Source of the DNA: a virus | IMG/VR virus record: IMGVR_UViG_3300044712_002679 | Span: 116,406 to 180,405 of that record | Length of the DNA stretch: 64,000 bases | Reading direction: 5' to 3' (one strand) | In this document: positions 322 to 44,913 of the stretch, one piece after another | How positions within the stretch are numbered: position 1 is the stretch's first letter | How the letters are laid out: each line of letters starts with the position of its first letter | Notes under the pieces: model-generated | Databases searched by the model: none | The model's input: the letters and a program-made list of their open reading frames with translations, nothing else | Told to the model about the DNA's origin: nothing | Program-made: the position numbers and the translations under genes

Positions 322-401
322 TCCTATGATTGATTTGAGATATTTATATACTACTAAAAAAATAAAGTTTAAATTTTTAATATATAAAATAAAATTTTCT
401 A

Positions 402-1793: not shown

Positions 1794-1842
1794 AATAACT
1801 AAAAATTTTATAAAAATTGTTGTTTATTAAAAATCTTTTTGT

Positions 1843-1850
1843 ATCTTTGT
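1843..1850 (+). promoter_or_regulatory. TATCTTTG promoter-like element (Bacteroidota -7 consensus TAnnTTTG), 21 nt before ATG 1872, followed by AAAACAACAA leader
   Basis: motif recurs in identical form upstream of genes at 4626, 39681, 40489, 54497 (+) and 21616, 19564 (-). Confidence 0.55.
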
Positions 1851-1871
1851 ATCGACAATTAAAACAACAAT

Positions 1872-2258
1872 ATGACATACGACAGCGATATAAAAACATT
1901 AATTTATGCAATGAATGAAAAACAACGACAAGATTTTTCAACATTGATAAATAATATGAAAGATTCAGATTTAGATGTGAATCTAAAAAAACAACACTCT
2001 GAAATTACTTGCGATGAAATAATTGAATCCATCGAAAGTATCACAAGTTATGAAAAAAAATCAAAACAAAAAGAAATTGCATCTAATAATGGTGAAACAA
2101 CTATCCCTATAGTAGATTGGGGTGTGCATATTAACCATTGCTGCGAAAAACATGGATGTAAATATGGTGATATTGATTGTCCAGTCACACTAAATTTAGT
2201 AACACAAAAATATCCCTGTGAATTTTGTGGGGATGAAGATTGGGATTTGGAATGGTAG
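1872..2258 (+). CDS. small Cys/His-rich protein, probable zinc binding
   Basis: C-terminal cluster HCCEKHGCKYGDIDCP...CEFCGDEDWD; preceded by promoter-like motif. Confidence 0.55.
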   Translation: MTYDSDIKTLIYAMNEKQRQDFSTLINNMKDSDLDVNLKKQHSEITCDEIIESIESITSYEKKSKQKEIASNNGETTIPIVDWGVHINHCCEKHGCKYGDIDCPVTLNLVTQKYPCEFCGDEDWDLEW

Positions 2259-3186: not shown

Positions 3187-4569
3187 TTATATCGAACTTA
3201 TTTGATTGAATTTTTCTAATGCTATTTCCAAATTACCGAAGAATAGTTTTAATTTTTGATCGTTTTCTCTTAACATAATATGAATAATATTTTTTAATCC
3301 ATTATGTTCAAATAGTGTTTTTTCTAATAAATCTAAATCAAATGTCACAATGGCTTTATCAATATTCTTTTGAATTCTAAATGTATTCATAAATTTAATT
3401 TTATCTAAAATCTTTCTATGTCCATTGAAAAAATTATTAGCTTTTTCTAAAATATATTTAGGTGATAATTTTTTATCTTCACCTAAGTGATATGCCTTAC
3501 ACATCAATGCTATTTGTTCCAAATAAAAAATTAAAGATTCTGCATCATCTGACAATTCACCTTTCTTTTCAATATATTCTTTGATATTACTTAAATCACC
3601 ATCCAATTTAACAAATAAATTAAAATCTATTTTAATATTTTTTCTCGATACTATTGTAAGTGGTAAATTTTTTCCACCATAACTTAAAAATTTTTTAACA
3701 ACATCTAAGTATTCTTTTACTTCTTTTTCATCTTTCTTAATATTATAACCATCACAATATAAATAATTATTTCCTAACGAAAAAATTGGAGTGTAACTAA
3801 CATTGTTTATCAATTTTTTTTGAAAAAAATGAAACAATAAATCATCACCCCTATGATGTTCATCCGATCTAGCTATTGGTATAATATCTGATGTATTATG
3901 ATTAATCATAATATACCCGACATTATCATAATCACCCACATTTAATCCTTTACCAGAATTATTATTTAATATAATTTGAGTTTTCCAATCAGATACATTG
4001 GATATATCACCACTAATGTCTTGATATTTTTGAAGTTTTTCAGGTATTGTAAATTTTATACCCTCATTTATACCCTCATTTATACCCTCATTTACTTTGA
4101 TAAAATTATAATACCAATCTTCTAATTGAAATTCATTACTAAAATATTTAATGTTTTCAGGTTTAAAATTAACCATTTCCCGTCCTTTTATAATAATACC
4201 ATCATATCCCATTTTTTGTAATTCATCTTCAATTGTCGTATTATTAGAAAAATATCTTTTACTTTGTGGTACATTATGTTCTTTACAAAAATTATTAATC
4301 ATTACATTATATTCCCATATTTCCCAATCATTTAAAGTATTAAAAATTTTTGGTTTTTTTGGAATTGCATTAACAATAAAATATACTTTACCATATTGTT
4401 TAGCTAAATCTTTATTGGATAATGCTGCCGTGTATAATCCTCTACCTAACATAGCACCCGCATCATTTTCTAATCCAGCTTCTTTTATCCCACGAATAGT
4501 AACATTCTTTCGCTTCCACGATAAATATTCTTTCCTAGATTCATTATATTTAATAAATTCTGTAAACAT
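3187..4569 (-). CDS. hypothetical protein (460 aa) with EGIN tandem repeat
   Basis: long ORF; contains NEGINEGINEGI encoded by 12-bp DNA repeat at 4057-4092. Confidence 0.55.
   Translation of the reverse strand: MFTEFIKYNESRKEYLSWKRKNVTIRGIKEAGLENDAGAMLGRGLYTAALSNKDLAKQYGKVYFIVNAIPKKPKIFNTLNDWEIWEYNVMINNFCKEHNVPQSKRYFSNNTTIEDELQKMGYDGIIIKGREMVNFKPENIKYFSNEFQLEDWYYNFIKVNEGINEGINEGIKFTIPEKLQKYQDISGDISNVSDWKTQIILNNNSGKGLNVGDYDNVGYIMINHNTSDIIPIARSDEHHRGDDLLFHFFQKKLINNVSYTPIFSLGNNYLYCDGYNIKKDEKEVKEYLDVVKKFLSYGGKNLPLTIVSRKNIKIDFNLFVKLDGDLSNIKEYIEKKGELSDDAESLIFYLEQIALMCKAYHLGEDKKLSPKYILEKANNFFNGHRKILDKIKFMNTFRIQKNIDKAIVTFDLDLLEKTLFEHNGLKNIIHIMLRENDQKLKLFFGNLEIALEKFNQISSI
4057..4092. repeat. 12-bp tandem repeat x3 (tataccctcatt) inside CDS 3187-4569
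   Basis: three perfect copies read directly. Confidence 0.8.
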
Positions 4570-4606
4570 AGTTTTATATATTAAAATTTAAATCAAAATT
4601 TTTTCG

Positions 4607-4614
4607 TATCTTTG
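4607..4614 (+). promoter_or_regulatory. TATCTTTG promoter-like element 11 nt upstream of ATG 4626
   Basis: identical octamer to other instances. Confidence 0.5.
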
Positions 4615-4625
4615 CTAAAAAACAA

Positions 4626-4889
4626 ATGGAATATAAATATTGGAAAATTTGGTACATTTCATGTGAAGGTAATGAAAGATGGGTAGTTGCAAGAACATCT
4701 ATTGATTGGGAAGAATATCAAGTTCATGATAGAATACCTATTGGTGGTTGTGGTGATGATGTTGCAGAAATAACATCAATCGAAGAAACAAATAATGATA
4801 ATTTTTCATGGGACTTTTTTGAATCTGAAGAATATGAAATGATTGGCATTGTATTAAGAAAATTAGATAATATCCCAATAGATGTATAA
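4626..4889 (+). CDS. hypothetical small acidic protein
   Basis: 87-aa ORF with promoter-like motif; overlapping antisense ORF 4724-4957 judged spurious. Confidence 0.5.
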   Translation: MEYKYWKIWYISCEGNERWVVARTSIDWEEYQVHDRIPIGGCGDDVAEITSIEETNNDNFSWDFFESEEYEMIGIVLRKLDNIPIDV

Positions 4890-5307: not shown

Positions 5308-5443
5308 GTGGAGAAAGAAGGATTCGAACCCCCGACACACGGCTCCCATTGCTTAGATTTTTGGTTTGCTGTGCATAATTTTTACTTTCGACAAATTACG
5401 TTTTTCTCTTTTTACGTTGCTCTACCAACTGAGCTATTTCTCC
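5308..5443 (-). tRNA. interrupted tRNA: canonical 5' acceptor/D-arm and T-arm/3' acceptor separated by ~60-nt AT-rich insert
   Basis: 5' GGAGAAA-TA-GCTCAGTTGGTAGAGC... and ...GGGGG-TTCGAAT-CCTTC-TTTCTCC-A pair perfectly as one acceptor stem; anticodon arm not resolvable. Confidence 0.5.
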
Positions 5444-7638: not shown

Positions 7639-7728
7639 AAAATCAGAATACATTTTGTGGGTTTGAACCACGTTAACAAAGTTTCAGTTTGTATTTTAAC
7701 CTTTTGTTTTTGCTGTGCGTATTCTTTG

Positions 7729-7801
7729 TGGGGTAGACTGGTTACGATCCAGTTCCTATGGATTTTCAGTCCACCGCAATGACCACATCTGCCACTACCC
7801 C
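7729..7801 (-). tRNA. tRNA-Phe (GAA) with A54/U58-swapped T-loop (ATCGTAA)
   Basis: acceptor GGGGTAG/CTACCCC + A73, anticodon arm GTGGA-CTGAAAA-TCCAT, T-arm ACTGG-ATCGTAA-CCAGT. Confidence 0.65.
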
Positions 7802-7810
7802 AATTATTTG

Positions 7811-7894
7811 CGGAGAAAAAGGGATTCGAACCCCCACACCAGTTTCCCGATTTCACTGTTTTCGAAACAGCTAACTACACCAATAGGCTTCTCC
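7811..7894 (-). tRNA. tRNA-Ser (CGA)
   Basis: acceptor GGAGAAG/TTTCTCC + G73, anticodon arm GCTGT-TTCGAAA-ACAGT, long variable arm. Confidence 0.6.
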
Positions 7895-8055
7895 AAGTTC
7901 AGAATACTTTTGTGACATCGAATCACGACAAATTTCAAGTTTGCTTTACCTTTTTTTGCTGTATGTATTCTTTTTTGTGGACTGTATCGGATTTGCACCG
8001 ATTGTTAGCATAATTACTTTTTTGGTTTGCTATGCTTCAAAAAGCAACAGCCCAT

Positions 8056-8676
8056 TTATTTTTTATATTTATTTTTATTTTTTCCACCATGTGTATCTAA
8101 TGTTGCATTACAATTTGGACATAATATTCTTAAATTTGTTAATCTATGATCATTATTTATCCCATTTATATGATCTAATATTAAACTTATATGTTTTCCT
8201 TTCCAATTTTCATCTTGTCCACACATTTCACACTTTCTTTTTTTTAATCCATCTTCATATAATCTTTCTTTCAAATGTGTTGTATTAAAATTGGAATTTT
8301 CAACTAATATTAATGATAAATCTATTTTTTTATTTAAATTTTTTATTTGAAATTCATATTTAATAAAATGATCAATATTTATATCATATTTTTTAATATA
8401 TTTTTTTAATGTGTTATAAGAAGAACCAAAATTATTAATATCTAATTTAATTAAACATTCTTTATATGTTTTTGAATTTTTAACAATTTCAATTAAATAA
8501 TCTTTTTCATATTTATTTTTTACACTATAATGTGCTTCTATTTTTAATTTTTTTCGTCTTTCCTCAATTGATCTTATTGATCTATCTAATTTAGTTAAAC
8601 AATATTTTAAACCATAAATAGGATAATTTTCAATCAATATATCATCTTCATTTTTTGTCCATTTTTTATTTTTCAT
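8056..8676 (-). CDS. HNH homing endonuclease
   Basis: C-terminal CEMCGQDENWKGKHISLILDHINGINNDHRLTNLRILCPNCN (Cys pairs + DH...N...H...N HNH core); located inside tRNA array. Confidence 0.75.
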   Translation of the reverse strand: MKNKKWTKNEDDILIENYPIYGLKYCLTKLDRSIRSIEERRKKLKIEAHYSVKNKYEKDYLIEIVKNSKTYKECLIKLDINNFGSSYNTLKKYIKKYDINIDHFIKYEFQIKNLNKKIDLSLILVENSNFNTTHLKERLYEDGLKKRKCEMCGQDENWKGKHISLILDHINGINNDHRLTNLRILCPNCNATLDTHGGKNKNKYKK

Positions 8677-8767
8677 TTTAAGTTATTTTTTGTAGTATAT
8701 ATAAATATTTTAAACTACAAAAAATCACTATGAACTATAAAAATTCAAAAAAATAGTTATGGGAATG

Positions 8768-8848
8768 CACGACAGAGAGGATTCGAACCCCTGAACCTTT
8801 CGGTATAGTTTTGGAGACTATCAGCTTTAACCACTTGCATACTGCCGT
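8768..8848 (-). tRNA. tRNA-Trp-like (CCA) with 12-nt extended variable region; D-stem poorly formed
   Basis: acceptor ACGGCAG/CTGTCGT, anticodon arm ATAGT-CTCCAAA-ACTAT perfect, T-arm AGGGG-TTCGAAT-CCTCT. Confidence 0.45.
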
Positions 8849-8867
8849 ATATTTTTGCGGAGGCGAA

Positions 8868-8951
8868 GGGAATCGAACCCCCAAATCATTACTGATTTAC
8901 TTGTTTTCAAGACAAGCCCCTCGTCCATTCGGACCACCTCCAAATACAATT
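8868..8951 (-). tRNA. tRNA-Ser (UGA), second copy
   Basis: acceptor GGAGGTG/CGCCTCC + G73, anticodon arm CTTGT-CTTGAAA-ACAAG, variable hairpin AAATCA/TGATTT. Confidence 0.65.
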
Positions 8952-9001
8952 TAAAAGATTGTTCGTTATTTTTTGCTGTATGTATTCTTTGTGGGGTGAG
9001 G

Positions 9002-9077
9002 TGGATTCGAACCACCATCCCTGGATTTTCAGTCCAGTGCGAAACTGACCAACTGCGCTACCACCCCAATAAGTATA
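9002..9077 (-). tRNA. tRNA-Phe (GAA), second copy, with enlarged D region (extra hairpin CAGT-TTCGC-ACTG)
   Basis: acceptor GGGGTGG/TCACCCC + A73, anticodon arm CTGGA-CTGAAAA-TCCAG, T-arm GGTGG-TTCGAAT-CCACC. Confidence 0.55.
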
Positions 9078-9094
9078 ACGTATGTGCGTCTGGT

Positions 9095-9167
9095 GGGTCA
9101 CGATCCCACGACTCCATCATTAAAAGTGATGTACTCTACCAACTGAGTTACAGACGCAAAAATATTC
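9095..9167 (-). tRNA. tRNA-Lys (UUU), canonical class I, A54/U58-swapped T-loop (ATCGTGA)
   Basis: acceptor GCGTCTG/CAGACGC + A73, D-arm ACTC-AGTTGGTA-GAGT, anticodon arm CATCA-CTTTTAA-TGATG. Confidence 0.75.
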
Positions 9168-9196
9168 AATATGTCAATGAACTTTAAAAAAAATTG

Positions 9197-9282
9197 TGAT
9201 CCCGATGGGACTCGAACCCATGTACAACTTTCGTATCCCACATTAAAAGTGTGGTGCCTCGTTCCAACTCGGCCACGGAATC
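9197..9282 (-). tRNA. class-II (long variable arm) tRNA with anticodon UUU and discriminator A73
   Basis: acceptor GATTCCG/CGGGATC (one G-U), 3-bp D-stem GCC/GGC, anticodon arm CCACA-CTTTTAA-TGTGG perfect, 16-nt variable arm, T-arm ATGGG-TTCGAGT-CCCAT. Confidence 0.55.
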
Positions 9283-9302
9283 AATAAATAAAGAACGTAA
9301 CA

Positions 9303-9345
9303 AAAAAAAATCCGAACTTTTTACGGTTCGGATTTTTCTGTTTTA
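9303..9345. terminator. bidirectional intrinsic terminator (ATCCGAAC...GTTCGGAT hairpin between A9 and T-run) bounding the tRNA array
   Basis: 8-bp inverted repeat read directly. Confidence 0.65.
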
Positions 9346-9583
9346 TCTTAATTAAAAATCAATTTATTTTGACTTATTAAGTAAGCATACGAAATCCGAA
9401 CCTGATCTATGTGACCAAAAGCTCTTAAAGGATTTACTATGTTTACTTACGTTTCTCATGATTTCTATTTTTTACTTTGTTTTACTTATATAGAAAATTA
9501 ATTCTATTTTGTTTATTTTTTCTTTTATATATTAACGTAAAAAAGTCATTTTTTTCTATTTTTGATTTTTGTGACTTTTCACG

Positions 9584-9640
9584 ATACAAATATACGCATT
9601 ATTTTTAATCTACCAAATTTTTTTAATGTTTTTTTTTAAA
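9584..9640. repeat. ~57-bp direct repeat copy 1 (acaaatatacgcattatttttaatctaccaaatttttttaatg...)
   Basis: near-identical second copy at 9824-9880 flanking a GC-richer core. Confidence 0.6.
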
Positions 9641-9823
9641 ATAATTAACAGAAAGAGTTTTAACCTTTCCGCAAGACTTTCGCAATAACTTTCTCAAGGT
9701 TGTTGTTAGTTCTTGTTTGTATCCAGTCTCTTATCCCCTTTGAGTTGGGTGTTTAGGTATTATAAGTGAACTCTCTTATAATCTTGCTTGGGCGCACATC
9801 CTAAACTTTACTTTTCAAATTCT

Positions 9824-9880
9824 TTACAAATATACACATTATTTTTTAATCACCAAATATTTTTCAATATTTTTTCAATT
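9824..9880. repeat. ~57-bp direct repeat copy 2
   Basis: acaaatatacacattattttttaatcaccaaatatttttcaatat, matches copy 1 with few substitutions. Confidence 0.6.
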
Positions 9881-9949
9881 AAATTCATTGGTTTACAATT
9901 GGTAATTGGCAAAATTACTAAAATTGGCAATAATAAATCAAATGTTTTT

Positions 9950-10270
9950 TCATTTATTTTTCATTTCGAATTCGAATGTTGCATCATATGATTCACAATA
10001 TCCTGGTTTATCGTAAGATATTTTCCAACCATAATCTCGATATAAGTCTTCAAAATCCATCCAATGATTTTTGTATATATGTTCACTTGTCATATGTTCG
10101 GGTGCAACTTTCATAATTTCTGTCATAATATCTTTTTGTCTTATCGTAAAACTAGATTTGACATAATTATTTTTAATTGCATTATTTATTCCGAGTATTA
10201 CAAAATCTGGAATATTACTTTTTGCTTCATTCCTAGCTTCTTCTGGTGTTATTGGCTTAATTTCTGACAT
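9950..10270 (-). CDS. hypothetical protein (106 aa)
   Basis: ORF heading a long minus-strand gene block. Confidence 0.45.
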   Translation of the reverse strand: MSEIKPITPEEARNEAKSNIPDFVILGINNAIKNNYVKSSFTIRQKDIMTEIMKVAPEHMTSEHIYKNHWMDFEDLYRDYGWKISYDKPGYCESYDATFEFEMKNK

Positions 10271-10272
10271 AT

Positions 10273-10485
10273 TTAGAATATTTTATTATACCACTTAGTT
10301 TTATCTTCCCAATATTTTAATAATATTTCAAACCCTTCTTTGGTTTTATCATCAATTTCTCCGTTATTACGCATTTGGGCAATTCTTTTCTTCAAAGATT
10401 TAAGATACATACGTTTACGTATGATCATAAATAACAATAAAAAAAATGCATTAAATACTAAGTAAATTACAATTTTTGTTATCAT
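10273..10485 (-). CDS. small membrane-anchored protein (70 aa)
   Basis: N-terminal hydrophobic stretch IVIYLVFNAFFLLLFMII then basic tail. Confidence 0.4.
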   Translation of the reverse strand: MITKIVIYLVFNAFFLLLFMIIRKRMYLKSLKKRIAQMRNNGEIDDKTKEGFEILLKYWEDKTKWYNKIF

Positions 10486-10542
10486 AAAATATAGTTTTTT
10501 AAATTACAAATGCAAATATAATAAAAATATTTAAATATACAA

Positions 10543-11196
10543 TTATTTTTCACCAGAATTATAACTATTGTCTAACATTATGACACCATCTGAATTATAG
10601 ATATCAATTACATCTTTAACATAGTTTAATAGTCTTTTGGGTGCTTTATAAATTGAACAAGGTCTACCATCAATACCATTTTCTTCTTTTTCGTTAGTTT
10701 TTTTAAATAATACAGAAACACTTTCAGAAAATGATCCACCAACATGATGCCAATCTTCATAATTCACTTTATAATTATAAGTATTCCAAGTCATTCTTTT
10801 AATTCTTTCTTCAGTATCAAAATTATGAACAAATGTATATAATCTTCGTCTACTATAAATACCATCATTTATATATGCTACTAGCGATATTAGAAATATA
10901 TTAATTGTTGCTTGATTATATTCTTTTAATAAGTTATCAAATTGTTTATACCAAGATTTGATAAAATTTAATATATTTTCATCTATATCAATATCAAGGT
11001 CTAAATTAAATGCACGAGAAGCATTTAATGGTGTATCTGTTTTTATTTTTGGTGATATTTTTGTTTTTGGTGTATCTTTTACACCATATTTAGCTGGATC
11101 AAGTCCATTTCGTCTAAAGGTGTCTGCTAATGTTTCACCGGGTAGTGCTGATAATAATTCGAATAAAAAATCATCATAATTTTTTAATATTTTCAT
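10543..11196 (-). CDS. hypothetical protein (217 aa)
   Basis: clean ORF; no motif recognised. Confidence 0.5.
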   Translation of the reverse strand: MKILKNYDDFLFELLSALPGETLADTFRRNGLDPAKYGVKDTPKTKISPKIKTDTPLNASRAFNLDLDIDIDENILNFIKSWYKQFDNLLKEYNQATINIFLISLVAYINDGIYSRRRLYTFVHNFDTEERIKRMTWNTYNYKVNYEDWHHVGGSFSESVSVLFKKTNEKEENGIDGRPCSIYKAPKRLLNYVKDVIDIYNSDGVIMLDNSYNSGEK

Positions 11197-17197: not shown

Positions 17198-17205
17198 TAT
17201 ATTTG
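17198..17205 (+). promoter_or_regulatory. TATATTTG (TAnnTTTG) promoter-like element upstream of 17254
   Basis: same consensus as other instances. Confidence 0.4.
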
Positions 17206-17253
17206 CATAAAAAATTTTTTCATTTTTAATATATATCTAAAAAAAACAAAAAT

Positions 17254-17925
17254 ATGGCTAAATTATTAAAATATGAATCTTTTTTGAATGAAAAAAAATT
17301 GAATTTAGATAACACATATGAATATTTGAAAAAAGTTACTAAAAAATGTAATTATGAACAATCCCAACATTTTTATATGAAAGAACCAATTGAAATTGGA
17401 ACATGTAAAAGTGGTAAATTTTATTTAAATTATTTAAGTGTTAATTATTATGATGATCATTTAGCATTTTGGATTATATATAATGAAAGACCAGATAAAT
17501 TATTTGGCACATCTTGGGATTCATCCGTAATATGGGAAGAAGAAGGTAAATTGAATTATATTGATGAAAACATCAAAGAAGAATTTAAATTATATCCAAA
17601 TTTTATGGAAATTATTGCAGAAAAAATCAAATCATATGATGATTTAGATAACTGGTGTAAATATTTAGTTGATCTTGGTTTAAAATCTAGAAAATATCAT
17701 CGTTGGGCAATATCAGCATCTATAAAAGATAAATTAACATGGGATGAAAGAATAGAATGGACAAAAAATCAAATTGAAATTGACAAATTATTGAATCGTC
17801 ATTCTAAACCTGTTGAAGAAAAACGATTGAAAGATATGTTAACTTTGGGTGAAGTTGAATATGATAAAAAAATGAATAAACAGAATAAAGAAATTGAAGA
17901 TATTTTAAAAGAAATGGATTTATAA
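17254..17925 (+). CDS. hypothetical protein (223 aa)
   Basis: isolated plus-strand ORF. Confidence 0.5.
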   Translation: MAKLLKYESFLNEKKLNLDNTYEYLKKVTKKCNYEQSQHFYMKEPIEIGTCKSGKFYLNYLSVNYYDDHLAFWIIYNERPDKLFGTSWDSSVIWEEEGKLNYIDENIKEEFKLYPNFMEIIAEKIKSYDDLDNWCKYLVDLGLKSRKYHRWAISASIKDKLTWDERIEWTKNQIEIDKLLNRHSKPVEEKRLKDMLTLGEVEYDKKMNKQNKEIEDILKEMDL

Positions 17926-18976: not shown

Positions 18977-19564
18977 TTATTTAATATATGCTAAACATTT
19001 GTTTTTTGCTTCTGTAAGTTCAATGAATTTATCTTGACTACCACCTTTATCAGGATGATATATTTTAGATAATTCACGATATTTAGACTGAACATCATCT
19101 TTAGTGGCATCAGTAGTCAACCCCAAGAAATCAAATGATTCTCTTGGTACTAAACTATTAAAGAATAAGGATGCCAAAAAACCGAAATGTGCAAATGGAT
19201 CAAATCCATCAAATGGATCATTCCATCTTCGATATTCTTCCCGTCTACGTTGATTTTCTTCTTTTTCTCTACGTCTACGTTCCATTTCTGTTGGAAACAA
19301 ATCTTCACGCATTTTAACTATAACTGATGCATAAAAATAATTCCAAAGTTTTTCTGGCAATTGACCAGCAGTTTTTTTATCAATACCATCCCATTTCATT
19401 CGAATTGCACGAACAGCATTTTCGAATCCTTTGATATTTTGATAAGAATTTCCAACTTCAAGTAGTGTTAGAAAATCTTGTGTTAAATCAGCAATAAATT
19501 CATTATGCTTAAAATTAACACCATGTAATAAATTGTACTTTTTTTGATAATCTAATGTTTTCAT
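18977..19564 (-). CDS. J-domain (DnaJ-like) protein, J domain C-terminal
   Basis: DVQSKYRELSKIYHPDKGGSQDKFIELTEAKN (HPD motif); start moved to ATG 19564 (track start is a TTG). Confidence 0.6.
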   Translation of the reverse strand: MKTLDYQKKYNLLHGVNFKHNEFIADLTQDFLTLLEVGNSYQNIKGFENAVRAIRMKWDGIDKKTAGQLPEKLWNYFYASVIVKMREDLFPTEMERRRREKEENQRRREEYRRWNDPFDGFDPFAHFGFLASLFFNSLVPRESFDFLGLTTDATKDDVQSKYRELSKIYHPDKGGSQDKFIELTEAKNKCLAYIK

Positions 19565-19588
19565 TGTTGTTGTTTTTAAATGATGACA

Positions 19589-19596
19589 CAAAGATA
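19589..19596 (-). promoter_or_regulatory. TATCTTTG promoter-like element (minus strand) + AAAAACAACAACA leader before ATG 19564
   Basis: reverse complement reads TATCTTTGTGTCATCATTTAAAAACAACAACAATG. Confidence 0.55.
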
Positions 19597-19639
19597 GTAA
19601 TAATTTTTTTAATATTACCAAAATATTGTAGTTTTTTCA

Positions 19640-19685
19640 AAAAAAAAGGAAGGCTATACAGTTTAAGCCTTCCCAAAAATTTTAA
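19640..19685. terminator. intrinsic terminator hairpin GGAAGGCT...AGCCTTCC
   Basis: 8-bp inverted repeat flanked by A9 and AAAAATTTT. Confidence 0.55.
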
Positions 19686-20878: not shown

Positions 20879-21616
20879 TTATTTTAATCTTGTTATAGTT
20901 ATAATAACACCACCAACACTAGTTCCACTTGTTTTGAATGCACCCCTTGGAATATTTTCGATATTAGCATTAACTTCACTTAGCCAATTTCTAAATTCGG
21001 TTTCTTTTTTATTATTTGAATTTTTCCAATGTTCAGATGCGATTGATACCAATTTGCCACCACATTTCAATAATTCATACATATGTTTTACGTGGTCGAT
21101 ATCTTGATTGGCTGTGAATGGTGGATTTGCTATAATTTTATCATATACAGGTTGATTCGGAATCATTAAAAAATCTCCAACTTCATGATGAAAACCTTTT
21201 TTATTTAGTATTAATGAATTTGCTTCCATCAATTCAATTGCAAGAACTTGACAATCAATATTTTTTCTTAATATCGCTTCGATTATAGCACCTTGACCTG
21301 CACTAGGTTCTAATACAATATCATTTTCTTTTAAATCTGCCAAATTCACTAATTTATCTGCAAGTTCACTTGGTGTTTCAAAAAATTGATATTCTTTTTT
21401 TAAATTACGTTTTTCACCATTGGATATTTGATTAAGTAAATCAGTAGGATCAGAATTAAACACAAACCCAAACGTTTTACCACCAACCCATTTACCACCA
21501 ATCAAATTAAGTGATTTTGCTACATCTTGGTATAATTTTCTTTCGAGTTGAACATTTGGTAATTTAACAACATTACCATCAACGGTACATTGAATTAATA
21601 CTTCTTCTTTTGTCAT
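20879..21616 (-). CDS. DNA methyltransferase, N6-adenine (or N4-cytosine) type
   Basis: motif I VLEPSAGQGAII and motif IV IIANPPF. Confidence 0.7.
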   Translation of the reverse strand: MTKEEVLIQCTVDGNVVKLPNVQLERKLYQDVAKSLNLIGGKWVGGKTFGFVFNSDPTDLLNQISNGEKRNLKKEYQFFETPSELADKLVNLADLKENDIVLEPSAGQGAIIEAILRKNIDCQVLAIELMEANSLILNKKGFHHEVGDFLMIPNQPVYDKIIANPPFTANQDIDHVKHMYELLKCGGKLVSIASEHWKNSNNKKETEFRNWLSEVNANIENIPRGAFKTSGTSVGGVIITITRLK

Positions 21617-21651
21617 AAAATTGTTGTTTTAAATGATTGTGCAAAGATAGT

Positions 21652-21659
21652 TAATTTTT
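21652..21659 (-). promoter_or_regulatory. TATCTTTG promoter-like element (minus strand) before ATG 21616
   Basis: reverse complement TATCTTTGCACAATCATTTAAAACAACAATTTTATG. Confidence 0.55.
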
Positions 21660-21670
21660 TATTAAATAAC

Positions 21671-21702
21671 AAAAAAAAAGAGGATTTAAATCCCCTTTTT
21701 TA
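21671..21702. terminator. intrinsic terminator hairpin GGATTT-AAATCC with flanking A/T runs
   Basis: follows stop of 21700-23271. Confidence 0.5.
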
Positions 21703-23761: not shown

Positions 23762-23826
23762 AATATTATTTAATTCAATATTTTAAAAAAGTTTAACATT
23801 TATTGTACGATATTTAAAAACTTTTT

Positions 23827-23834
23827 TATATTTG
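23827..23834 (+). promoter_or_regulatory. TATATTTG promoter-like element upstream of 23882
   Basis: TAnnTTTG consensus. Confidence 0.4.
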
Positions 23835-23881
23835 TCCACTAATATAGAATATTAATAATTTAAAAATTCAAAATAAACAAT

Positions 23882-25027
23882 ATGAGTGAAAATCAAGAAA
23901 ATATAAATTCTGAAAAAACATATAATAAGTTTTCTGTGAGATATATGTATACTAAAGATGAGTGTTATCAGGAATCATTAAATTATAATTCCCGAATTGA
24001 ATTCGCTAGGGAGTCAAAAAGTATTTATAAGTGTGCAGAATTGAATTGTTGGTTAAATGATTTTCCACATTTAAGAACAAAAGATACCCCAGTAAAAACA
24101 AGATATACTAAGTTTGAATGTTATAATATGTCATTGAAATGTAAAAACACAAGAGAATTTAAAGCTAAATATAAATTTTATTACATGTGTTCAGCATTAA
24201 ATGGTTGGTTGGATGAATTTAAATTAAACCAAAAAACTAAAACTAAAGAAAAATTAACAAAAGCACAATGTAAAAGATCAGCAAAAAATTATACTACCCG
24301 AAGTGAATTTGCAGCTAAAGGAAAAAAATATTATGAATTTGCTACTAAAAATGGATGGATAAAAGAAATATGTTCACATATGATTGAATCTGAACACGAT
24401 AAAAATTATTGGACAAAAGAAAATTGTAATAGTGAAGCCTTGATATATAAAACTAGAAAAGATTTTGAACTTGGGAATCCATCAGCTTATACACAATCAA
24501 AATTAAAGGGTTGGTTGGATGATATTTGTTCACATATGGAAATAGAAATTAAAGATGAATTTTGGACAAAACAACGTTGTCAAATTGAAGCTGCAAAATA
24601 TCCGAAAAAAAGTCATTTTTCTTATTATTCAGAACCAGCATATAGAATAGCAAGTCAAAATGGATGGTTAGATGATATATGTAAACATATGTTAGATGAT
24701 GATAATGAAAGATTTTTAAAACTAACAGAAAAAGAAATATGTTTCAATGAAGCTTTGAAATATTCTACAATGAAAGACTTTTTTGAAAATTCTCCTGAAA
24801 AATTTGAAAAATGTAGAATAAATAAATGGTTTTATGAAGCATGTAAACATATGCCATCACAAACTTTACCTGTTGATTATTGGACATATGAAAGATGTGC
24901 AATTGAAGCAAAAAAATATAAAACAATAAGAGATTTTAGATATCACGCTAAAGGTGCATACAATAAAATATTAGAATTCAAATGGAAAGAATTAGATCAG
25001 CATTTAAGAAATGATATTTCAATATGA
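23882..25027 (+). CDS. repeat protein: ~8 tandem ~44-aa modules (WTKExC..EAxKYxTRxDF....NGWLDDICxHM)
   Basis: repeats read directly; module resembles the repeat unit of the 40489-47426 family. Confidence 0.6.
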   Translation: MSENQENINSEKTYNKFSVRYMYTKDECYQESLNYNSRIEFARESKSIYKCAELNCWLNDFPHLRTKDTPVKTRYTKFECYNMSLKCKNTREFKAKYKFYYMCSALNGWLDEFKLNQKTKTKEKLTKAQCKRSAKNYTTRSEFAAKGKKYYEFATKNGWIKEICSHMIESEHDKNYWTKENCNSEALIYKTRKDFELGNPSAYTQSKLKGWLDDICSHMEIEIKDEFWTKQRCQIEAAKYPKKSHFSYYSEPAYRIASQNGWLDDICKHMLDDDNERFLKLTEKEICFNEALKYSTMKDFFENSPEKFEKCRINKWFYEACKHMPSQTLPVDYWTYERCAIEAKKYKTIRDFRYHAKGAYNKILEFKWKELDQHLRNDISI

Positions 25028-26190: not shown

Positions 26191-27068
26191 TTTTCTTCGA
26201 AATATGAAAATTTGTGTAATTTTTTAATAAAAATTTGACCTTGCTTGCGTATATAAGCTTCCACTTTTTTAATATTCTTATTATCAAAATATTTTCCAAT
26301 ATTATTTTTTTCTGTTTTAGATAATTCATCAAAATTAAAATTAAAATTACACATATCTTTATAATACTTAAGTGGATATTTATTTTCTTCTTCTTTTATT
26401 GTATTTAATAAATTTTTGGATTTTTTCACTTTAAGATAAAATTCGTGTAATCTTGCGGATAATTCATCTTCGTTTGCCAAGTAACAATAAACTAAAAATT
26501 TTTTATATGATTCAGAACCATCGGTTGTTGAAGTTAAATCAGTAATTGATGCGATACTACCAAATCTAACTTCATGTATAAATAAGTCAACAATATCACC
26601 CTTAAAAATGCGTTTAGTATCATCTGAAAAAAATTCATTTCGACTACGAGAATATAATATCTTACTTTTAATAGTTCTATCTACTAAATGTTTAATTTCG
26701 TGAGTTAATAGTTCTTTAGTATCATATTCTTTATTTTCAATACCCAACATTATATCAACATAATATTTATTTCTTTTGTTTTTTTGTTTTTTTGGTATAA
26801 TATTAACTGAAGCTATTGCTCGATTATAATATATACTAACTATAATATTACTTATAAAAACTAATTCTGTATTTTTTAATTGCCATGATCCATTAATATA
26901 AACTTCATTGGGCTTTAAAATATTTATATTAAATTCTGAAATATCAACAATTGTTTGGGTTTCTTTTTTATCAATCGCATCTTCAATTTGTTTCCACATT
27001 TTTTCGACAATTTCAAGTGTTAATTTATTTACACCCAATTTTTCAAATATTTTAAAAGTTGTTATCAT
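26187..27068 (-). CDS. hypothetical protein with HExxH motif (possible zinc metallopeptidase)
   Basis: ELLTHEIKHLVD. Confidence 0.4.
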   Translation of the reverse strand: MITTFKIFEKLGVNKLTLEIVEKMWKQIEDAIDKKETQTIVDISEFNINILKPNEVYINGSWQLKNTELVFISNIIVSIYYNRAIASVNIIPKKQKNKRNKYYVDIMLGIENKEYDTKELLTHEIKHLVDRTIKSKILYSRSRNEFFSDDTKRIFKGDIVDLFIHEVRFGSIASITDLTSTTDGSESYKKFLVYCYLANEDELSARLHEFYLKVKKSKNLLNTIKEEENKYPLKYYKDMCNFNFNFDELSKTEKNNIGKYFDNKNIKKVEAYIRKQGQIFIKKLHKFSYFEEN

Positions 27069-28588
27069 AATTCAATAATTTTGATTTTTTTCTTTTTACA
27101 CAATGAAATCAATTTTTCTTTATTTTCTTGGTCTGATTCAGATACTTTAAGATAGTTATCAGTTAATCTGATTTCTTTAATGTAATTTATTGGTATTTTA
27201 TTTGCATGAATTTGAATTTCCGAATATAAATTATAAAATCTATCCCCTTCGATAAATACTTTACCTTTACTTGTTTCAAAAACACGACCATCATTTTTAT
27301 GATTTAAATTTTCTAAAATTGTTTTTGATTCATATTTATATTCTGGATAAAATTTTTCTTTTACTAAATTTGAATAAATTTTTTTTAATTCTTTTTTCTT
27401 ATATATTGTATCCACATTTTCTGCCACACTATCCAATAATGTAAAAGTCACTTTAAATTTTTCATAAATAGATGGTTTAAAATATATCATAACCGAACCA
27501 TGACCAGTTTCATATCCACCATCATTAAACCAATCCGGAATACAAAATATCAAATCTTCTGTTCCAAATTTTTCAAGTTCAATTTCTTTTCTTTCATTCC
27601 ACCAAGTTTCATTTTCATCTATAATTTGAATTTCTTTTTTTAATTCATTTCTACTCATCAAAAATCCTTTTTCAAGTATTGATATTACGGATTCATATGA
27701 TGATAAGTGTCTAGCAAATGGATATTCATCATTTTCAGCATCATTTTCAGCATCATTTTCAGCATCATTTTCAGCATCATTTTCAGCATCATTTTCAGCA
27801 TCATTTTCAGCATCATTTTCAGCATCATTAAATAATATACCAATTCCTTGTATTTGATTATTATTAGTTTGATATGTAAATTCTTTATATATTTTACCTT
27901 CTTTAATTTCATTCCAAAATTTAACAACACCTGGACAAGTTGAATCGTTAATGTCATGAAACATAACGATTTTAGCATATTTACCCAAATTTTCATAATC
28001 GGTAGATACACCTTCATATGAATGATCAGCATCAATAAATATAAAATCATATTTTTGACCTTTAAAATCTTCACTTGTTCCTATATGTAAATTAATGTAT
28101 TGTTTTATATCTTCAGTTAATCCTTTATCTGAAATATCAACACCAATAGATTTTAAATTTGGATTTTTGAGTTTTAAAATATTATCAATTAATATATGGG
28201 TTCCACCTTTAAATATACCCACCTCAACATATGTATTTATATCATATTTCAACAATTCTAATAAAGCATCAGCTATTTGTTTTGGGGTTTGAAACATAGC
28301 TTCTTCGTTTCTATCATAAACCATATATTGATTCCATTCACCATAACCATCTCTATCTTCTACACATAAACCATAATCGCAAACTAAATTTATAATATCA
28401 ACTTCTTTAATATCGGTCGCATTTAATTTAGAAATACTTTCAATTAATTTTTTATTTTTACTAAATTTGTTATCTTCAAATATATTTATATTTTTGTGCG
28501 TGAAATCACTAAACCGTTTAATCATAATCAAAAAATCTATTTTACATATATATAAAAAAATTAAACAACATTCTAATAAAAAAAACAT
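27065..28588 (-). CDS. CmcI/TylF-type class I SAM-dependent O-methyltransferase domain protein with (ENDA)n repeat and C-terminal extension
   Basis: YVEVGIFKGGTHILIDN ... YDFIFIDADHSYEGVSTD ... HDI; ENDAENDA... from 12-bp repeat. Confidence 0.6.
   Translation of the reverse strand: MFFLLECCLIFLYICKIDFLIMIKRFSDFTHKNINIFEDNKFSKNKKLIESISKLNATDIKEVDIINLVCDYGLCVEDRDGYGEWNQYMVYDRNEEAMFQTPKQIADALLELLKYDINTYVEVGIFKGGTHILIDNILKLKNPNLKSIGVDISDKGLTEDIKQYINLHIGTSEDFKGQKYDFIFIDADHSYEGVSTDYENLGKYAKIVMFHDINDSTCPGVVKFWNEIKEGKIYKEFTYQTNNNQIQGIGILFNDAENDAENDAENDAENDAENDAENDAENDAENDEYPFARHLSSYESVISILEKGFLMSRNELKKEIQIIDENETWWNERKEIELEKFGTEDLIFCIPDWFNDGGYETGHGSVMIYFKPSIYEKFKVTFTLLDSVAENVDTIYKKKELKKIYSNLVKEKFYPEYKYESKTILENLNHKNDGRVFETSKGKVFIEGDRFYNLYSEIQIHANKIPINYIKEIRLTDNYLKVSESDQENKEKLISLCKKKKIKIIEL
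27727..27838. repeat. 12-bp tandem repeat (catcattttcag) x~9 inside CDS
   Basis: read directly; in-frame, encodes NDAE repeats. Confidence 0.85.
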
Positions 28589-28620: not shown

Positions 28621-29154
28621 ATGAAGCAAAAAGAATCAGAAAACAGAATTAATTATTCAATTAAAGATTTAACCGTAAGGTTAGTTGGTGATAATGTTAC
28701 AAATGGTGTAATTGACACTAAAAGTGCAATAAAATTGGCTAGAGATATGGAATTAGATTTGGTCGAAATTTCGGGTCCAGTTAACGGAAATCCATCAATT
28801 TGCAAAATAGTTGACTATCAAAAATATCTTTACGACAAAAAGAAAAAAGATAAAGATCAAAAGAAAAAGCAAAAATTAAGTCAGTCAGAAGTCAAAGAAA
28901 TTAGAATGACCCCGCATACTGATGAACACGATTTTAATTTTAAATTAAATCATGCTAAAAACTTCTTAACCAATAACGATAAAGTATTAGTTTCAGTATT
29001 CTTTAAGGGTAGAGAAATATCATATAAAGAACAAGGTCAAATTGTTTTATTAAAATTTGCAAAGGAATTGGAAGATATTGGCATACCTGAGTATTTACCT
29101 AAACTAGAAGGAAAAAAAATGCTAATGATGATTAAACCTAAACCAAAAAAATAA
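28621..29154 (+). CDS. infC: translation initiation factor IF-3
   Basis: aligns by eye with E. coli IF3 across N- and C-domains (NRIN..VRL.G; DLVEISP.A.PPVCRI.DY.K.LY; KKKQK...VKEI..P..DEHD...KL.....FL; GRE). Confidence 0.85.
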   Translation: MKQKESENRINYSIKDLTVRLVGDNVTNGVIDTKSAIKLARDMELDLVEISGPVNGNPSICKIVDYQKYLYDKKKKDKDQKKKQKLSQSEVKEIRMTPHTDEHDFNFKLNHAKNFLTNNDKVLVSVFFKGREISYKEQGQIVLLKFAKELEDIGIPEYLPKLEGKKMLMMIKPKPKK

Positions 29155-29606: not shown

Positions 29607-29649
29607 ATTATTTTTTTTAATATATATATTAATTTAAAAATGATAAAAT

Positions 29650-32896: not shown

Positions 32897-33355
32897 TTAA
32901 ATTAATGATTGAAATTTTACATATTTTTTAGGACACAAATAAAAATTTCGATAACTTTTTTCTTTTTTATCATACAATTCTTTAAAAAACCAATTTTTAT
33001 ATGTACTACTATATATTATTAAACACTTGGTTTTAGAAGCATTTAATATTATATAGCAATATAATGTCCTTATATTTCTTTTATCTATTTTATATTTTTC
33101 ATCAACAATTATATCTTGGTATGGTACATCATCAAATGTCATAAAATCTATTTCTTTCCATTGTTTGACTTCAACCCGCATTGATATTTTTATATCACCA
33201 TCATCAGTATGTTCATATCTCGATTCTTCATCTGGTGTTACAGTATATGGTAAAATCTCACTATCAAAACCCAATTTTGTCATCCAATTATTAACAACAA
33301 TTGTTGCTTTTTTAGCATCATTTAAATTTTGCGTAAAAATGTTTCTGGGTTTCAT
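32897..33355 (-). CDS. hypothetical protein (152 aa)
   Basis: 4-nt overlap with polB fragment stop. Confidence 0.45.
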   Translation of the reverse strand: MKPRNIFTQNLNDAKKATIVVNNWMTKLGFDSEILPYTVTPDEESRYEHTDDGDIKISMRVEVKQWKEIDFMTFDDVPYQDIIVDEKYKIDKRNIRTLYCYIILNASKTKCLIIYSSTYKNWFFKELYDKKEKSYRNFYLCPKKYVKFQSLI

Positions 33356-34722
33356 ATTGAAAATATTGAATTTAATACTGACAATCTTTTATTTATTGTT
33401 GGTAATCCTATTGGTTCGAGAAAACGATTCACAATATGTAAGAATGTTAAATCAAATTGTTCATCAAAATCAATTTTAACACCTTCTTTTTCTACAATTT
33501 CATATGGATGCATACTTCTTTGAAAAGCAAAAACATTATTTTTAGGATGATTACAATAATAATATTTTATTCTTCCACCTCTTATATTATCATATTTTAC
33601 TTTATATTCCGAATTTTTGTTTAATAAATAATTGTGTAATGCTGCAGCTTTAACACCAAAATGCGCACCTTTAATACATACAACATCGGTTACATCATCT
33701 ATACACTTAATTGAATAATTACTACAACTAGTGGTCATACTAATATCTTCGATATCTGCCATTATAAATTCTCGCTTCATATCTTTAACCAATTTTAAAA
33801 CTTTTCTAATATCAATATTATTAGGATTTCCAAATATATACCTTAAAAAATCATAAATATTTTCTCTAACAAATGGTGGTGTAGAAGATTTAACAATCTC
33901 AACACCCTTTGGATAAAAATATGTCAAATTTTCATAAAAAATTCCATCTTCCCAAACAACATTGTTTATGTAATTCTTTTTTTGAATATGTAATGCTGAA
34001 CGATTAATTGTTTCAAGTTCAAATACATGAAGATTTTTAACACCATATCTTGATGCATATTCAACAAGCCAACTGTTATATAATTTTTCAACAAATATTC
34101 TATTAGCATGTAATATCCAATCCAATTCTTCACCCATATAATTAGATGAATCAATCATTGGTTTAAAAGAAATATATAATGAATCGGTATCACCATATAT
34201 GATTATTGGCTTTTCTTTTGGAATTTGTTCTATATGTGAAAAGTCACCAATTATTCTTTTAAATAAAATATTATAACTTTTAAATTCTTTCTTATCTTCA
34301 ATTAAATCGAATTTATTTATATTTAACTTTTTTAATAACCCATCATCACCATCTAATGAATTGTGTGGATAATTAATATTCATTCCATTAATATCCAACA
34401 AGAAATATTTACCTTCTTTTTCGGCTATATATTCTAAACCTAATCTTTTGTGGGTTTCGATATCCAAATGCCACTCATTATAAAAATATTGTTCAATTTT
34501 TTTCAACATAAAATTTATAACATCACGACCATGTGCAGTAATAGCATTTGCTATATGTGAATTTGATATTACAAAATGCGGATTTGCGAATGCGCCGTAT
34601 GTTCCGTTAATCACGAGCTTAAGTGCTAATTGCATCGCTTTCGCTCTATCATATTCAGCTTTTGTTTCGTCTATTCGACTTTTTAATTCCGCAATTTTTT
34701 GTCTTTTTTCATCAGGTGTCAT
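33352..34722 (-). CDS. family-B DNA polymerase, C-terminal half only (motif B to thumb)
   Basis: KLVINGTYGAF (KxxxNSxYG motif B), IIIYGDTDSLY (motif C), IQKKNYI (KKRY-like); ORF begins ~40 aa before motif B; no exonuclease or motif A region. Confidence 0.75.
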   Translation of the reverse strand: MTPDEKRQKIAELKSRIDETKAEYDRAKAMQLALKLVINGTYGAFANPHFVISNSHIANAITAHGRDVINFMLKKIEQYFYNEWHLDIETHKRLGLEYIAEKEGKYFLLDINGMNINYPHNSLDGDDGLLKKLNINKFDLIEDKKEFKSYNILFKRIIGDFSHIEQIPKEKPIIIYGDTDSLYISFKPMIDSSNYMGEELDWILHANRIFVEKLYNSWLVEYASRYGVKNLHVFELETINRSALHIQKKNYINNVVWEDGIFYENLTYFYPKGVEIVKSSTPPFVRENIYDFLRYIFGNPNNIDIRKVLKLVKDMKREFIMADIEDISMTTSCSNYSIKCIDDVTDVVCIKGAHFGVKAAALHNYLLNKNSEYKVKYDNIRGGRIKYYYCNHPKNNVFAFQRSMHPYEIVEKEGVKIDFDEQFDLTFLHIVNRFLEPIGLPTINKRLSVLNSIFSI

Positions 34723-34815
34723 TTAATATAATATATTTTTCTATATTTAGCATAAAAAAATTTTTTTGTTTATAAATTGTTTTCTGTTTTTAATATATAA
34801 GAAAAAAAATACAAT

Positions 34816-39498: not shown

Positions 39499-39611
39499 AG
39501 TTATATTTTTACTTTTTTATAGATTAAAAATAAATTAGAGTTTATTTTATTTTATTTGATCTAATTATTTTCGAATTATATTTATTTTGTTTCATGTTGT
39601 TGAATTTTTAT

Positions 39612-39619
39612 TATCTTTG
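39612..39619 (+). promoter_or_regulatory. TATCTTTG promoter-like element in divergent intergenic region upstream of 39681
   Basis: identical octamer. Confidence 0.45.
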
Positions 39620-39680
39620 CACAATTAATGACACCAATCATCATATCAACGGGTGTGGTTAAATTATTTAAATTCATAAA

Positions 39681-40418: not shown

Positions 40419-40457
40419 AAAGAAGTTTAAAAAACTTCTTTTTTGTTAAAAATTTTG

Positions 40458-40465
40458 TATCTTTG
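40458..40465 (+). promoter_or_regulatory. TATCTTTG promoter-like element 23 nt before ATG 40489
   Basis: identical octamer. Confidence 0.5.
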
Positions 40466-40488
40466 CAAATATTTTTTAACATTCAATT

Positions 40489-41808: not shown

Positions 41809-41811
41809 TTT

Positions 41812-43515: not shown

Positions 43516-43518
43516 TTT

Positions 43519-44823: not shown

Positions 44824-44877
44824 AATAAAAATTTTTTAAAAAACTTACAATAAATTTGCTTTTTCGTAATAAAAACT

Positions 44878-44885
44878 TATATTTG
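44878..44885 (+). promoter_or_regulatory. TATATTTG promoter-like element upstream of 44914
   Basis: TAnnTTTG. Confidence 0.4.
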
Positions 44886-44913
44886 CACAATGTTTAATTA
44901 AAAATATAAGTTT

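Follow-up and report, generated by a model that had tools for sequence, protein, structure and literature searches.

The stretch of DNA analysed here (hereafter, the window) comprises 64,000 nucleotides (64 kb) of the IMG/VR virus record IMGVR_UViG_3300044712_002679 (positions 116,406 to 180,405) and has a G+C content of 25.3%. Genes on both strands are preceded by the octamer TATCTTTG or by closely similar boxes of the form TAT[C/A]TTTG. These boxes very probably belong to housekeeping promoters of the Bacteroidota kind (−33 TTG / −7 TAT[C/A]TTTG[C/T]), carried by a huge phage that is very rich in AT and akin to the Mahaphage/Lak clade. The evidence consists of the motif itself, its architecture, orientation and enrichment, its conservation in relatives, and the host-phylum signals, all of which were observed directly.

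The original prediction had described a conserved block at 1836-1874 and a similar one in front of the gene at 54497, and both were quoted exactly (1836-1874 is TTTTTGTATCTTTGTATCGACAATTAAAACAACAATATG, with the ATG at 1872). All seven genes that it had assigned to strong copies have a sense-oriented TATCTTTG upstream (at 1842+, 4607+, 39612+, 40458+, 54466+, 21649−, and 19596−), and the five relaxed sites of the form TATATTTG are also present (17198, 23827, 44878, 47435, and 52724). Its statement that near-identical blocks of ~35 nt precede seven genes was too broad, since it holds for two to four sites and not for seven. Near-identity over ~35 nt (from about −35 to the ATG) is confined to the genes 1872 and 54497. 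The box together with a TT(A)AAACAACAA leader is common to four sites (1842, 54466, 21649−, and 19596−), the box plus a ATTTAAAA(A)CAACAA leader is shared by the genes 21616(−) and 19564(−), and the genes 4626, 40489, and 39681 have nothing in common but the core and a stretch rich in T upstream. The distance of 11-25 nt to the ATG was likewise right for six of the seven strong sites but not for the gene 39681 (61 nt) or for the relaxed sites (15-48 nt). Gene duplication was rejected as the origin of the likeness between 1872 and 54497: it does not extend past the ATG, and the two genes encode unrelated proteins.

A clear positional bias was found for the box. Nine copies of TATCTTTG occur on both strands, and seven of them are sense-oriented and precede a called ATG by 80 nt or less, against an expectation of 5.8% (p of about 4e-8 to 7e-8). 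In an unbiased screen of the 8-mers in the sense-upstream regions, TATCTTTG came fourth, with the remaining top places taken by A-rich leader words and ATATATAT. The nine-base form TATMTTTGY (TAT[A/C]TTTG[C/T]) occurs 27 times, as compared with 9.2 ± 3.2 (maximum 19) in 200 dinucleotide shuffles, and 13 of the 27 copies are sense-upstream (p of about 8e-10). When the next base is [A/G] instead of [C/T], only 2 of 17 copies are found there. The loose pattern TAnnTTTG is weakly enriched overall (166 vs 142 in the shuffles), and the upstream enrichment is absent for TATTTTTG and for the TAA-, TAG-, and TAC- variants, so that TAT[C/A]TTTG is the only enriched form.

Some copies were set aside. The TATATTTG matches at 50479 and 50507 were treated as chance, because they lie inside the open reading frame (ORF) 50377-50694, whose frame spells an HNH-like peptide there (judged by eye), and 13524+ and 40413− were dropped from the site list as antisense or intragenic copies. 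The second of these, an antisense TATCTTTGT at 40413-40406 (−), is located where the PIN-domain gene ends (3′) and points into that gene, at a distance of 45 nt to the sense promoter 40458; it represents either an antisense promoter or a match that arose by chance.

Seventeen candidate promoter-like sites were aligned on the box. One feature is that the boxes are intergenic and oriented towards genes, that all of them read TAT[C/A/G]TTTG, and that 16 of the 17 obey TAHHTTTG. Another is the composition around them: the box is immediately preceded by an A-tract followed by a T-tract that ends in G or T, a T-rich position is found ~21-23 nt upstream of it, and a pyrimidine follows it. The last feature is a −33 TTG separated from the box by a spacer of 19-22 nt, which is found at 11 of the 17 sites, as compared with 19 of 149 (13%) other TAnnTTTG matches and 12% of random positions (p of about 9e-7). 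In adjacent 5-nt spacer windows, TTG occurs at 0-2 sites each, apart from a minor cluster of 5 sites, mostly with spacer 12. A TTG at spacer 11-12 was seen at 5 of the 17 sites (40458, 54466, 52724, 55968, and 39612), which either lack the 19-22 TTG or have it as well; it may be an alternative upstream contact, with numbers too small for a test.

This architecture agrees with that of the Bacteroidota sigma-A promoter, in which a −33 TTTG is combined with a −7 TAnnTTTG, refined to TAHHTTTG, and transcription starts 4-5 nt after the G (PMC6847099). In Flavobacterium johnsoniae, the NN positions avoid G, AT-rich motifs lie upstream of the −7 element, and the −33 element is weak (PMC6847099). The assignment of the box to the Bacteroidota sigma-A −7 element, made earlier from the box itself, is thus strengthened by the gene-facing intergenic positions and by the −33 TTG, and the sequence supports a bipartite element (−33 TTG / −7 TAnnTTTG) of the Bacteroidota housekeeping sigma type. 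The likeness to the sigma-ABfr promoters (PMC6847099) includes the −7 box, the −33 TTG at ~19-22 nt, the AT-rich tracts upstream, the short leaders, and the genes without a Shine-Dalgarno (SD) sequence; the differences are that the phage box is narrower and is often followed by TATCG or CACAA, that the DNA is viral, and that recognition by the host is deduced. The −33 TTG and the sites 10520−, 51160+, 55968+, 9834−, and 9594− had been missed in the original prediction. Matches to a sigma-70-type consensus were as frequent as in the shuffles in two of the three segments and more frequent only in 37-57 kb (210 vs 175.5 ± 13; 2.7 standard deviations above), and sigma-70-type promoters were rejected for lack of a consistent enrichment over the shuffles.

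The original prediction had placed the transcription start site (TSS) ~7 nt past the motif, which is corrected here to 4-5 nt after the G of the box (PMC6847099). The starts predicted in this way include 1854, 4619, 19584, 21637, 39624, 40470, 44890, 47447, 52736, and 54478. Under this rule, the predicted 5′ untranslated regions (5′-UTRs) would be 7-57 nt long. In the four best-conserved cassettes they would be 18-21 nt long, so that nearly the whole conserved block 3′ of the box would be 5′-UTR. A clear hairpin followed by a T-run lies directly upstream at 4 of the 17 sites (40458, 21649−, 19596−, and 9594−) and at none of the others, and a strong terminator follows the gene 1872-2258 (at 2286-2319). 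Owing to the terminators upstream of the promoters and after the gene 1872, several cassettes appear as self-contained single-gene units. The cassettes and promoters (class A) are as follows.

1820-1874 (+): class-A1 cassette; −33 TTG at 1820-1822, 19-nt spacer, TATCTTTG at 1842-1849, predicted TSS at ~1854, 18-nt leader GACAATTAAAACAACAAT, ATG at 1872; the gene encodes a 128-aa ORFan with no relatives found in IMG/VR.
54454-54499 (+): class-A1 cassette; TATCTTTG at 54466-54473, predicted TSS at ~54478, 19-nt leader GTAATTAAAACAACAACAA, ATG at 54497; the gene encodes a 128-aa protein without relation to the 1872 product.
21614-21701 (−): cassette after the A1-like gene; hairpin at 21701-21674 (dG −11.1 kcal/mol), −33 TTG at 21672, 20-nt spacer, TATCTTTG at 21649-21642, 21-nt leader ATCATTTAAAACAACAATTTT, ATG at 21616; DNA methyltransferase gene.
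19562-19680 (−): cassette; hairpin (dG −13.5 kcal/mol), −33 TTG at 19621, 22-nt spacer, TATCTTTG at 19596-19589, 20-nt leader ATCATTTAAAAACAACAACA, ATG at 19564; gene of a DnaJ-domain protein.
4595-4628 (+): class-A promoter; TATCTTTG at 4607-4614, predicted leader AAAACAA of ~7 nt, ATG at 4626; divergent from the class-B promoter (see below) of the gene 3187-4569(−).
39587-39683 (+): class-A promoter; TTG at 39587, 22-nt spacer, TATCTTTG at 39612-39619, predicted leader of ~57 nt, ATG at 39681; gene of a PIN-domain protein.
40420-40491 (+): cassette; hairpin AAAGAAGTTTAAAAAACTTCTTT and T-run, TATCTTTG at 40458-40465, 19-nt leader, ATG at 40489; the gene heads a run of HNH / INT_rpt-repeat genes.
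44856-44916 (+): class-A promoter; TTG, 19-nt spacer, TATATTTG at 44878-44885, 24-nt leader, ATG at 44914.
47435-47460 (+): class-A promoter; TATATTTG at 47435-47442, 11-nt leader, ATG at 47458; gene of an 879-aa helicase.
52700-52758 (+): class-A promoter; TTG, 21-nt spacer, TATATTTG at 52724-52731, 20-nt leader, ATG at 52756.
17198-17256 (+): possible dual promoter; TATATTTG at 17198-17205, then the class-B box TTAATATATA at 17226-17235, ATG at 17254.
23803-23884 (+): class-A promoter; TTG, 21-nt spacer, TATATTTG at 23827-23834, 43-nt leader ending in AAATAAACAAT, ATG at 23882.
10483-10542 (−): class-A promoter; TTG, 19-nt spacer, TATATTTG at 10520-10513, ATG at 10485.
9582-9856 (−): two near-identical full-consensus promoters, TTTG-N19-TATATTTG, at 9834-9827 and 9594-9587, 240 nt apart; they precede non-coding DNA and the tRNA array.
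51137-51200 (+): weaker candidate; TTG, 20-nt spacer, TATGTTTG at 51160-51167, ATG at 51198.
55968-56000 (+): candidate; TATATTTG at 55968-55975, 18-nt leader, ATG at 55998 (74-aa ORF); it may head the long plus-strand block that extends to ~63 kb.

The leaders between the box and the ATG have characteristics of their own. As had been noted, the genes lack an SD signal: the SD core was found at −20 to −4 in 3 of 88 window genes, and 2.4 would be expected from random windows. The frequency of A is 0.62-0.67 at −3 and at −10 to −13 (0.66 at −3; 0.65-0.66 at −12/−13), G is depleted, T is dominant at −1, and position −6 is not enriched in A (A 0.41, T 0.49). In Bacteroidia, initiation regions are SD-independent and "Kozak-like", with A at −3, −6, −12, and −13 as positive determinants (PMC6847099). 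The window genes resemble them in the missing SD sequence, in the A at −3 and at about −10 to −13, in the depletion of G, and in the AAAACAA-type leaders; they differ in that −6 is not A-rich and in that a subset of the phage leaders is an exact 12-mer. This 12-mer, TTAAAACAACAA, has three copies, all located between a TATCTTTG box and the ATG, and a one-mismatch copy lies at 19578−; its expectation was estimated from the base composition at ~0.1 copies. The class-A leaders are also richer in C (AACAA) than the class-B leaders (1.5 vs 0.53 per 15 nt, p = 0.004). In 80 Bacteroidota loci, AAAACAA was found 14 times at −25 to −1 of genes, as compared with 1.7 expected, in loci that are not independent because the same few orthologous genes occur in each. 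A literature search on the leader sequence returned nothing useful.

Taken together with the promoter architecture, these characteristics outline how the element may work. The most likely reader of the −33 and −7 elements would be the RNA polymerase of the host with its primary sigma (sigma-ABfr type), and the A/C-rich, G-poor, SD-less leader (AATTAAAACAACAA-ATG) would load ribosomes as in Bacteroidia. In its fullest form, the element would act as a self-contained expression cassette consisting of a terminator hairpin, A/T tracts, the −33 and −7 elements, a complete 5′-UTR, and the ATG, and the fullest cassettes appear to front single accessory genes (DNA methyltransferase, DnaJ-domain protein, ORFans).

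The element recurs in relatives, which in these comparisons share 40-80% protein identity. In the loci L001-L010 around the polymerase, 9 of 25 copies of TATCTTTG are sense-upstream (p of about 1e-5). In the window, the A1-like gene is followed by a terminator, the cassette, and the methyltransferase gene; at the same place, locus L115 has TTG-N20-TATATTTG, an A/C-rich leader, and an unrelated gene, and locus L116 has TTTG-N19-TAAATTTG-TATCGAAC… followed by a gene for the initiation factor IF3. Beside the ortholog of the gene 38734-39498, L003 has a divergent TTTG-N19-TATCTTTG with a different cargo, and L002 and L008 have none. L124 has a full TATCTTTG…TTAAAACAACAA…ATG cassette in front of its ortholog of the gene 23882. 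Moreover, TATCTTTG-N6-9-TTAAAACAACAA was found in 12 IMG/VR loci (8 distinct sequences), with an ATG within 2-31 nt in six of them; among these box-plus-leader loci are phages with 36% and 51% G+C, and the contigs reach 330 kb. The exact cassette had no matches in viral contigs or in metagenome contigs, and no relatives of the gene 402-1793 were found in IMG/VR. The homologs of the methyltransferase cargo occur in unrelated phages of varied G+C content, some with an SD sequence, and are therefore of no use for promoter footprinting, except for that in L011, which has TAAATTTG 17 nt before its ATG.

The host phylum proposed in the original prediction from the promoter-like boxes gains independent support from the proteins. 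The phage encodes a complete IF3 at 28621-29154 (+), in which IF3_N and IF3_C both exceed the Pfam cut-offs. In a collection with one genome per species, 546 relatives were found, of which the 80 best (51-60% identity) all come from Bacteroidota, of many orders. The A1-like protein is closest to those of Maribacter, Cellulophaga, and Flavobacterium phages. The DNA polymerase (33352-34722) has its best match (48% similar) in the 735-kb "uncultured phage" LR756501 and also matches other genomes of 630-640 kb and the Lak phages of Prevotella; ten IMG/VR contigs have 75-81% identity to it. The largest of these genomes and Lak have been placed in the "Mahaphage" clade, with Bacteroidetes as predicted hosts (PMC7162821). 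Together with the missing SD signal, these relationships indirectly support a Bacteroidota host, as judged from sequence similarity.

A second motif class (class B) was also found. It consists of TTAATATATA, preceded by a T-run and located 5-23 nt before the ATG; 9 of its 14 exact copies are at most 40 nt sense-upstream (p of about 2e-10). Examples of the boxes are as follows.

377-386 (+): class-B box.
4584-4575 (−): class-B box.
7019-7010 (−): class-B box.
17226-17235 (+): class-B box, in tandem with the class-A box before ATG 17254.
20723-20714 (−): class-B box.
29617-29626 (+): class-B box.
29632-29623 (−): class-B box.
34790-34799 (+): class-B box.
37264-37255 (−): class-B box.

The two classes are spatially segregated: the genes with only a class-B box lie in 0-39.5 kb, with one more at 62.6 kb, and the plus-strand block of 39.6-56 kb has only TAT[C/A]TTTG promoters. 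Both boxes are found upstream of three genes (4626, 17254, and 23882). The TAT[C/A]TTTG genes encode a DNA methyltransferase, DnaJ-domain, PIN-domain, and HNH-repeat proteins, a helicase, and small ORFans, and the TTAATATATA genes encode two of the homing/HNH endonucleases and several unknown proteins; the DNA polymerase gene has only a looser TATATTATATT-like match. The class-B box is similar to phage-specific promoters made up of one element, for example the T4 late TATAAATA, and some of the leaders that it implies would be almost nil. In 50 kb of LR756501, no upstream 8-mer is more enriched than TAATATAT (19 of 32, p of about 3e-16), and 6 of the 15 copies of TATMTTTGY are again sense-upstream (p of about 1e-4). 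Since both motifs are thus enriched upstream of genes in this relative, both classes are conserved across the clade.

The class-B motif would mark a phage-specific promoter class. The earlier suggestion that the TATCTTTG cassettes form one temporal class is plausible by analogy, and it is favored by the existence of the second class, by the segregation of the two, and by the occurrence of both in a distant relative. Because a distinct TTAATATATA class serves other genes, the TATCTTTG class is probably a regulon dependent on the host polymerase, presumably an early one if the timing follows that of T4-like phages. The Bacteroides fragilis phage Bf12P1, for which −7/−33-type promoters were predicted for the early, middle, and late modules (PMC13139388), offers a comparison. 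It is likewise a phage of a Bacteroidota host with units headed by host-type, TTTG-containing −7/−33 elements. Its promoter type was assigned to all three modules, whereas in the window the separate TTAATATATA motif serves another gene set.

Several points weigh against reading the boxes as host-type promoters of an early regulon. Of the 27 TATMTTTGY copies, ~10 lie within genes or in antisense orientation and probably have no function. Six of the 17 sites have no −33 TTG at the proper distance from the box; the listed site 39612 sits 61 nt before its ATG; and the box at 51160 has a G at position 4, which is disfavored in the TAHHTTTG of F. johnsoniae (PMC6847099). As such promoters were predicted for all modules of Bf12P1, a host-type box alone does not mean "early". 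Huge phages can encode sigma-70-like and anti-sigma proteins of their own (PMC7162821), and the window covers only 64 kb of this genome, so that a phage sigma of host-like specificity may exist. Finally, we infer the TSS positions, the polymerase and sigma that read the element, and the timing from the DNA sequence.

How far other explanations account for the same observations can be judged as follows. That the matches are chance products of a genome with 25% G+C is effectively refuted: the near-shuffle level of the loose TAnnTTTG and the variants without an upstream bias would fit it, but the specific form is three-fold over-represented with a strong bias in orientation and position, the −33 element co-occurs with it, and it recurs at orthologous positions in relatives. 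The boxes could be read by a phage-encoded sigma or by a phage-modified polymerase of host-like specificity, in which case the class would be under phage control. A more specific reader of this kind could be reflected in the phage consensus, which is narrower than that of the host (only TAT[C/A]TTTG[C/T] is enriched). We regard this as unlikely, since strong host promoters also look like a narrow consensus, the bipartite architecture and the spacing equal those of the host, and no sigma-like protein was found among the ~50 window proteins scanned. Still less probable, in our judgment, is a role of the conserved AAUUAAAACAACAA leader as a specific operator for an RNA-binding regulator, either a RegA-like translational repressor or the phage IF3. 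The leader is conserved beyond what A-richness needs, its exact 12-mer occurs three times and always in this context and recurs in other phages, and the phage does encode IF3; but AAAACAA-type leaders are also enriched before Bacteroidota genes, A at −3, −12, and −13 is a general determinant of translation in Bacteroidia (PMC6847099), and a candidate repressor was not identified.

A further proposal goes beyond the promoter function and considers the cassettes as mobile modules similar to the PeSLs of T4-like phages, which are stem-loop/promoter/leader units located before ORFans and implicated in gene shuffling (PMC2839356, PMC4122927). Recombination between the repeated units would insert, delete, or swap accessory genes. 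The combination of stem-loop, AT-rich region, host-type promoter, translation signal, and ATG matches the PeSLs (PMC4122927, PMC2839356). Near-identical cassettes front unrelated cargos, and that of 1872 has no relatives in IMG/VR. At orthologous positions in relatives, the same promoter type is followed by a methyltransferase, an unknown protein, or IF3, and the cassette is missing in some of them (L002 and L008); the same box and leader also occur in phages of 24-51% G+C. We consider this proposal possible but doubtful, because a clear upstream hairpin was found at 4 of the 17 sites only, the repeats between most copies are shorter than 20 nt, which is short for homologous recombination, and the comparison was limited to relatives with 40-80% protein identity, with no pair above 90% for the indel junctions. 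Somewhat more speculative is the view that TATCTTTG-N6-9-TTAAAACAACAA-ATG is a portable module that moves between Bacteroidota phages and drives the shuffling of accessory genes as the Bacteroidota counterpart of the T4 PeSLs, its conserved 5′-UTR being a dedicated SD-independent translation enhancer, possibly tuned to IF3; the box-plus-leader unit was found in the window and in unrelated IMG/VR phages of 24-51% G+C. Both the cassettes and the PeSLs (PMC2839356, PMC4122927) are composite units that recur in front of ORFans or small accessory genes, and in both the cargo at conserved positions differs between relatives. They differ in that the boxes of the window are of the Bacteroidota type and not of the sigma-70 type, an A/C-rich leader replaces the SD sequence, and the stem-loop is present at about a quarter of the sites. 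The likeness is thus a functional analogy only; in the window, the role in recombination is putative, as is any likeness of this phage to T4.

Some observations were made in the vicinity of the promoters. Behind the box at 9834(−), a relatively G+C-rich stretch of ~180 nt contains no ORF of at least 60 aa and ends in a hairpin and T-run (9672-9648). This stretch (in 9640-9856, −) is a candidate small RNA; it matched no Rfam family, and its predicted fold was no better than those of shuffles (z −0.53). After the box at 9594-9587 (in 9283-9616, −), a hairpin, a class-B box at 9535, and a possible 31-aa ORF were found, and a strong bidirectional terminator lies at 9306-9337, just ahead of the first tRNA (9282). 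The array on the minus strand comprises 14 tRNAs. Within it, an Rfam tRNA call at 5309-5443 (−) spans 135 nt (45.5 bits) and is absent from the ARAGORN output; this tRNA may be intron-containing or otherwise interrupted. Several unusually long tRNAs were reported by ARAGORN.

The six genes in a row at 40489-47426 (+) contain ~26 diverged copies of a repeat of ~190 nt (63 aa). The gene 44914-45546, the sole one of the six that was scanned against Pfam, matches INT_rpt, the "integrase repeat unit", and three of the six repeat genes have HNH/endonuclease N-termini. The genes 41812 and 43519 are near-identical in their 3′ ends and in their 70-nt upstream regions. Tandem repeats were also found at 27703-27846 (12-nt unit CATCATTTTCAG, ~9 copies, inside the gene 27065-28588(−)) and at 36472-36867 (unit of ~30 nt, ~11 copies, inside the gene 36459-37232(−)). 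The window further encodes the DNA polymerase, a primase-like protein, a helicase, HNH and homing endonucleases, the A1-like DNA-transfer protein, and methyltransferases. Several of the relatives L004-L009 (at ~7700-10900) have the DNA polymerase gene in two pieces with a gap of 0.5-1.7 kb, and in L009 the stretch between the pieces encodes an HNH-repeat protein. This suggests an intron, an intein, or a homing-endonuclease insertion that is absent from the window.

Reading the boxes as Bacteroidota housekeeping-type promoters leaves the current understanding unchanged and is not surprising; a promoter type already known is now also seen in a new and poorly studied phage group. For an uncultured, very AT-rich huge phage, the motif provides a cheap, sequence-only route to a Bacteroidota host, and it splits the genome into transcription units. 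The compact cassettes of a promoter and an 18-21-nt leader are candidate strong expression parts for Bacteroidota. The two classes, TAT[C/A]TTTG and TTAATATATA, could serve to predict, throughout the Mahaphage-related clade, which gene sets depend on the host and which on the phage.

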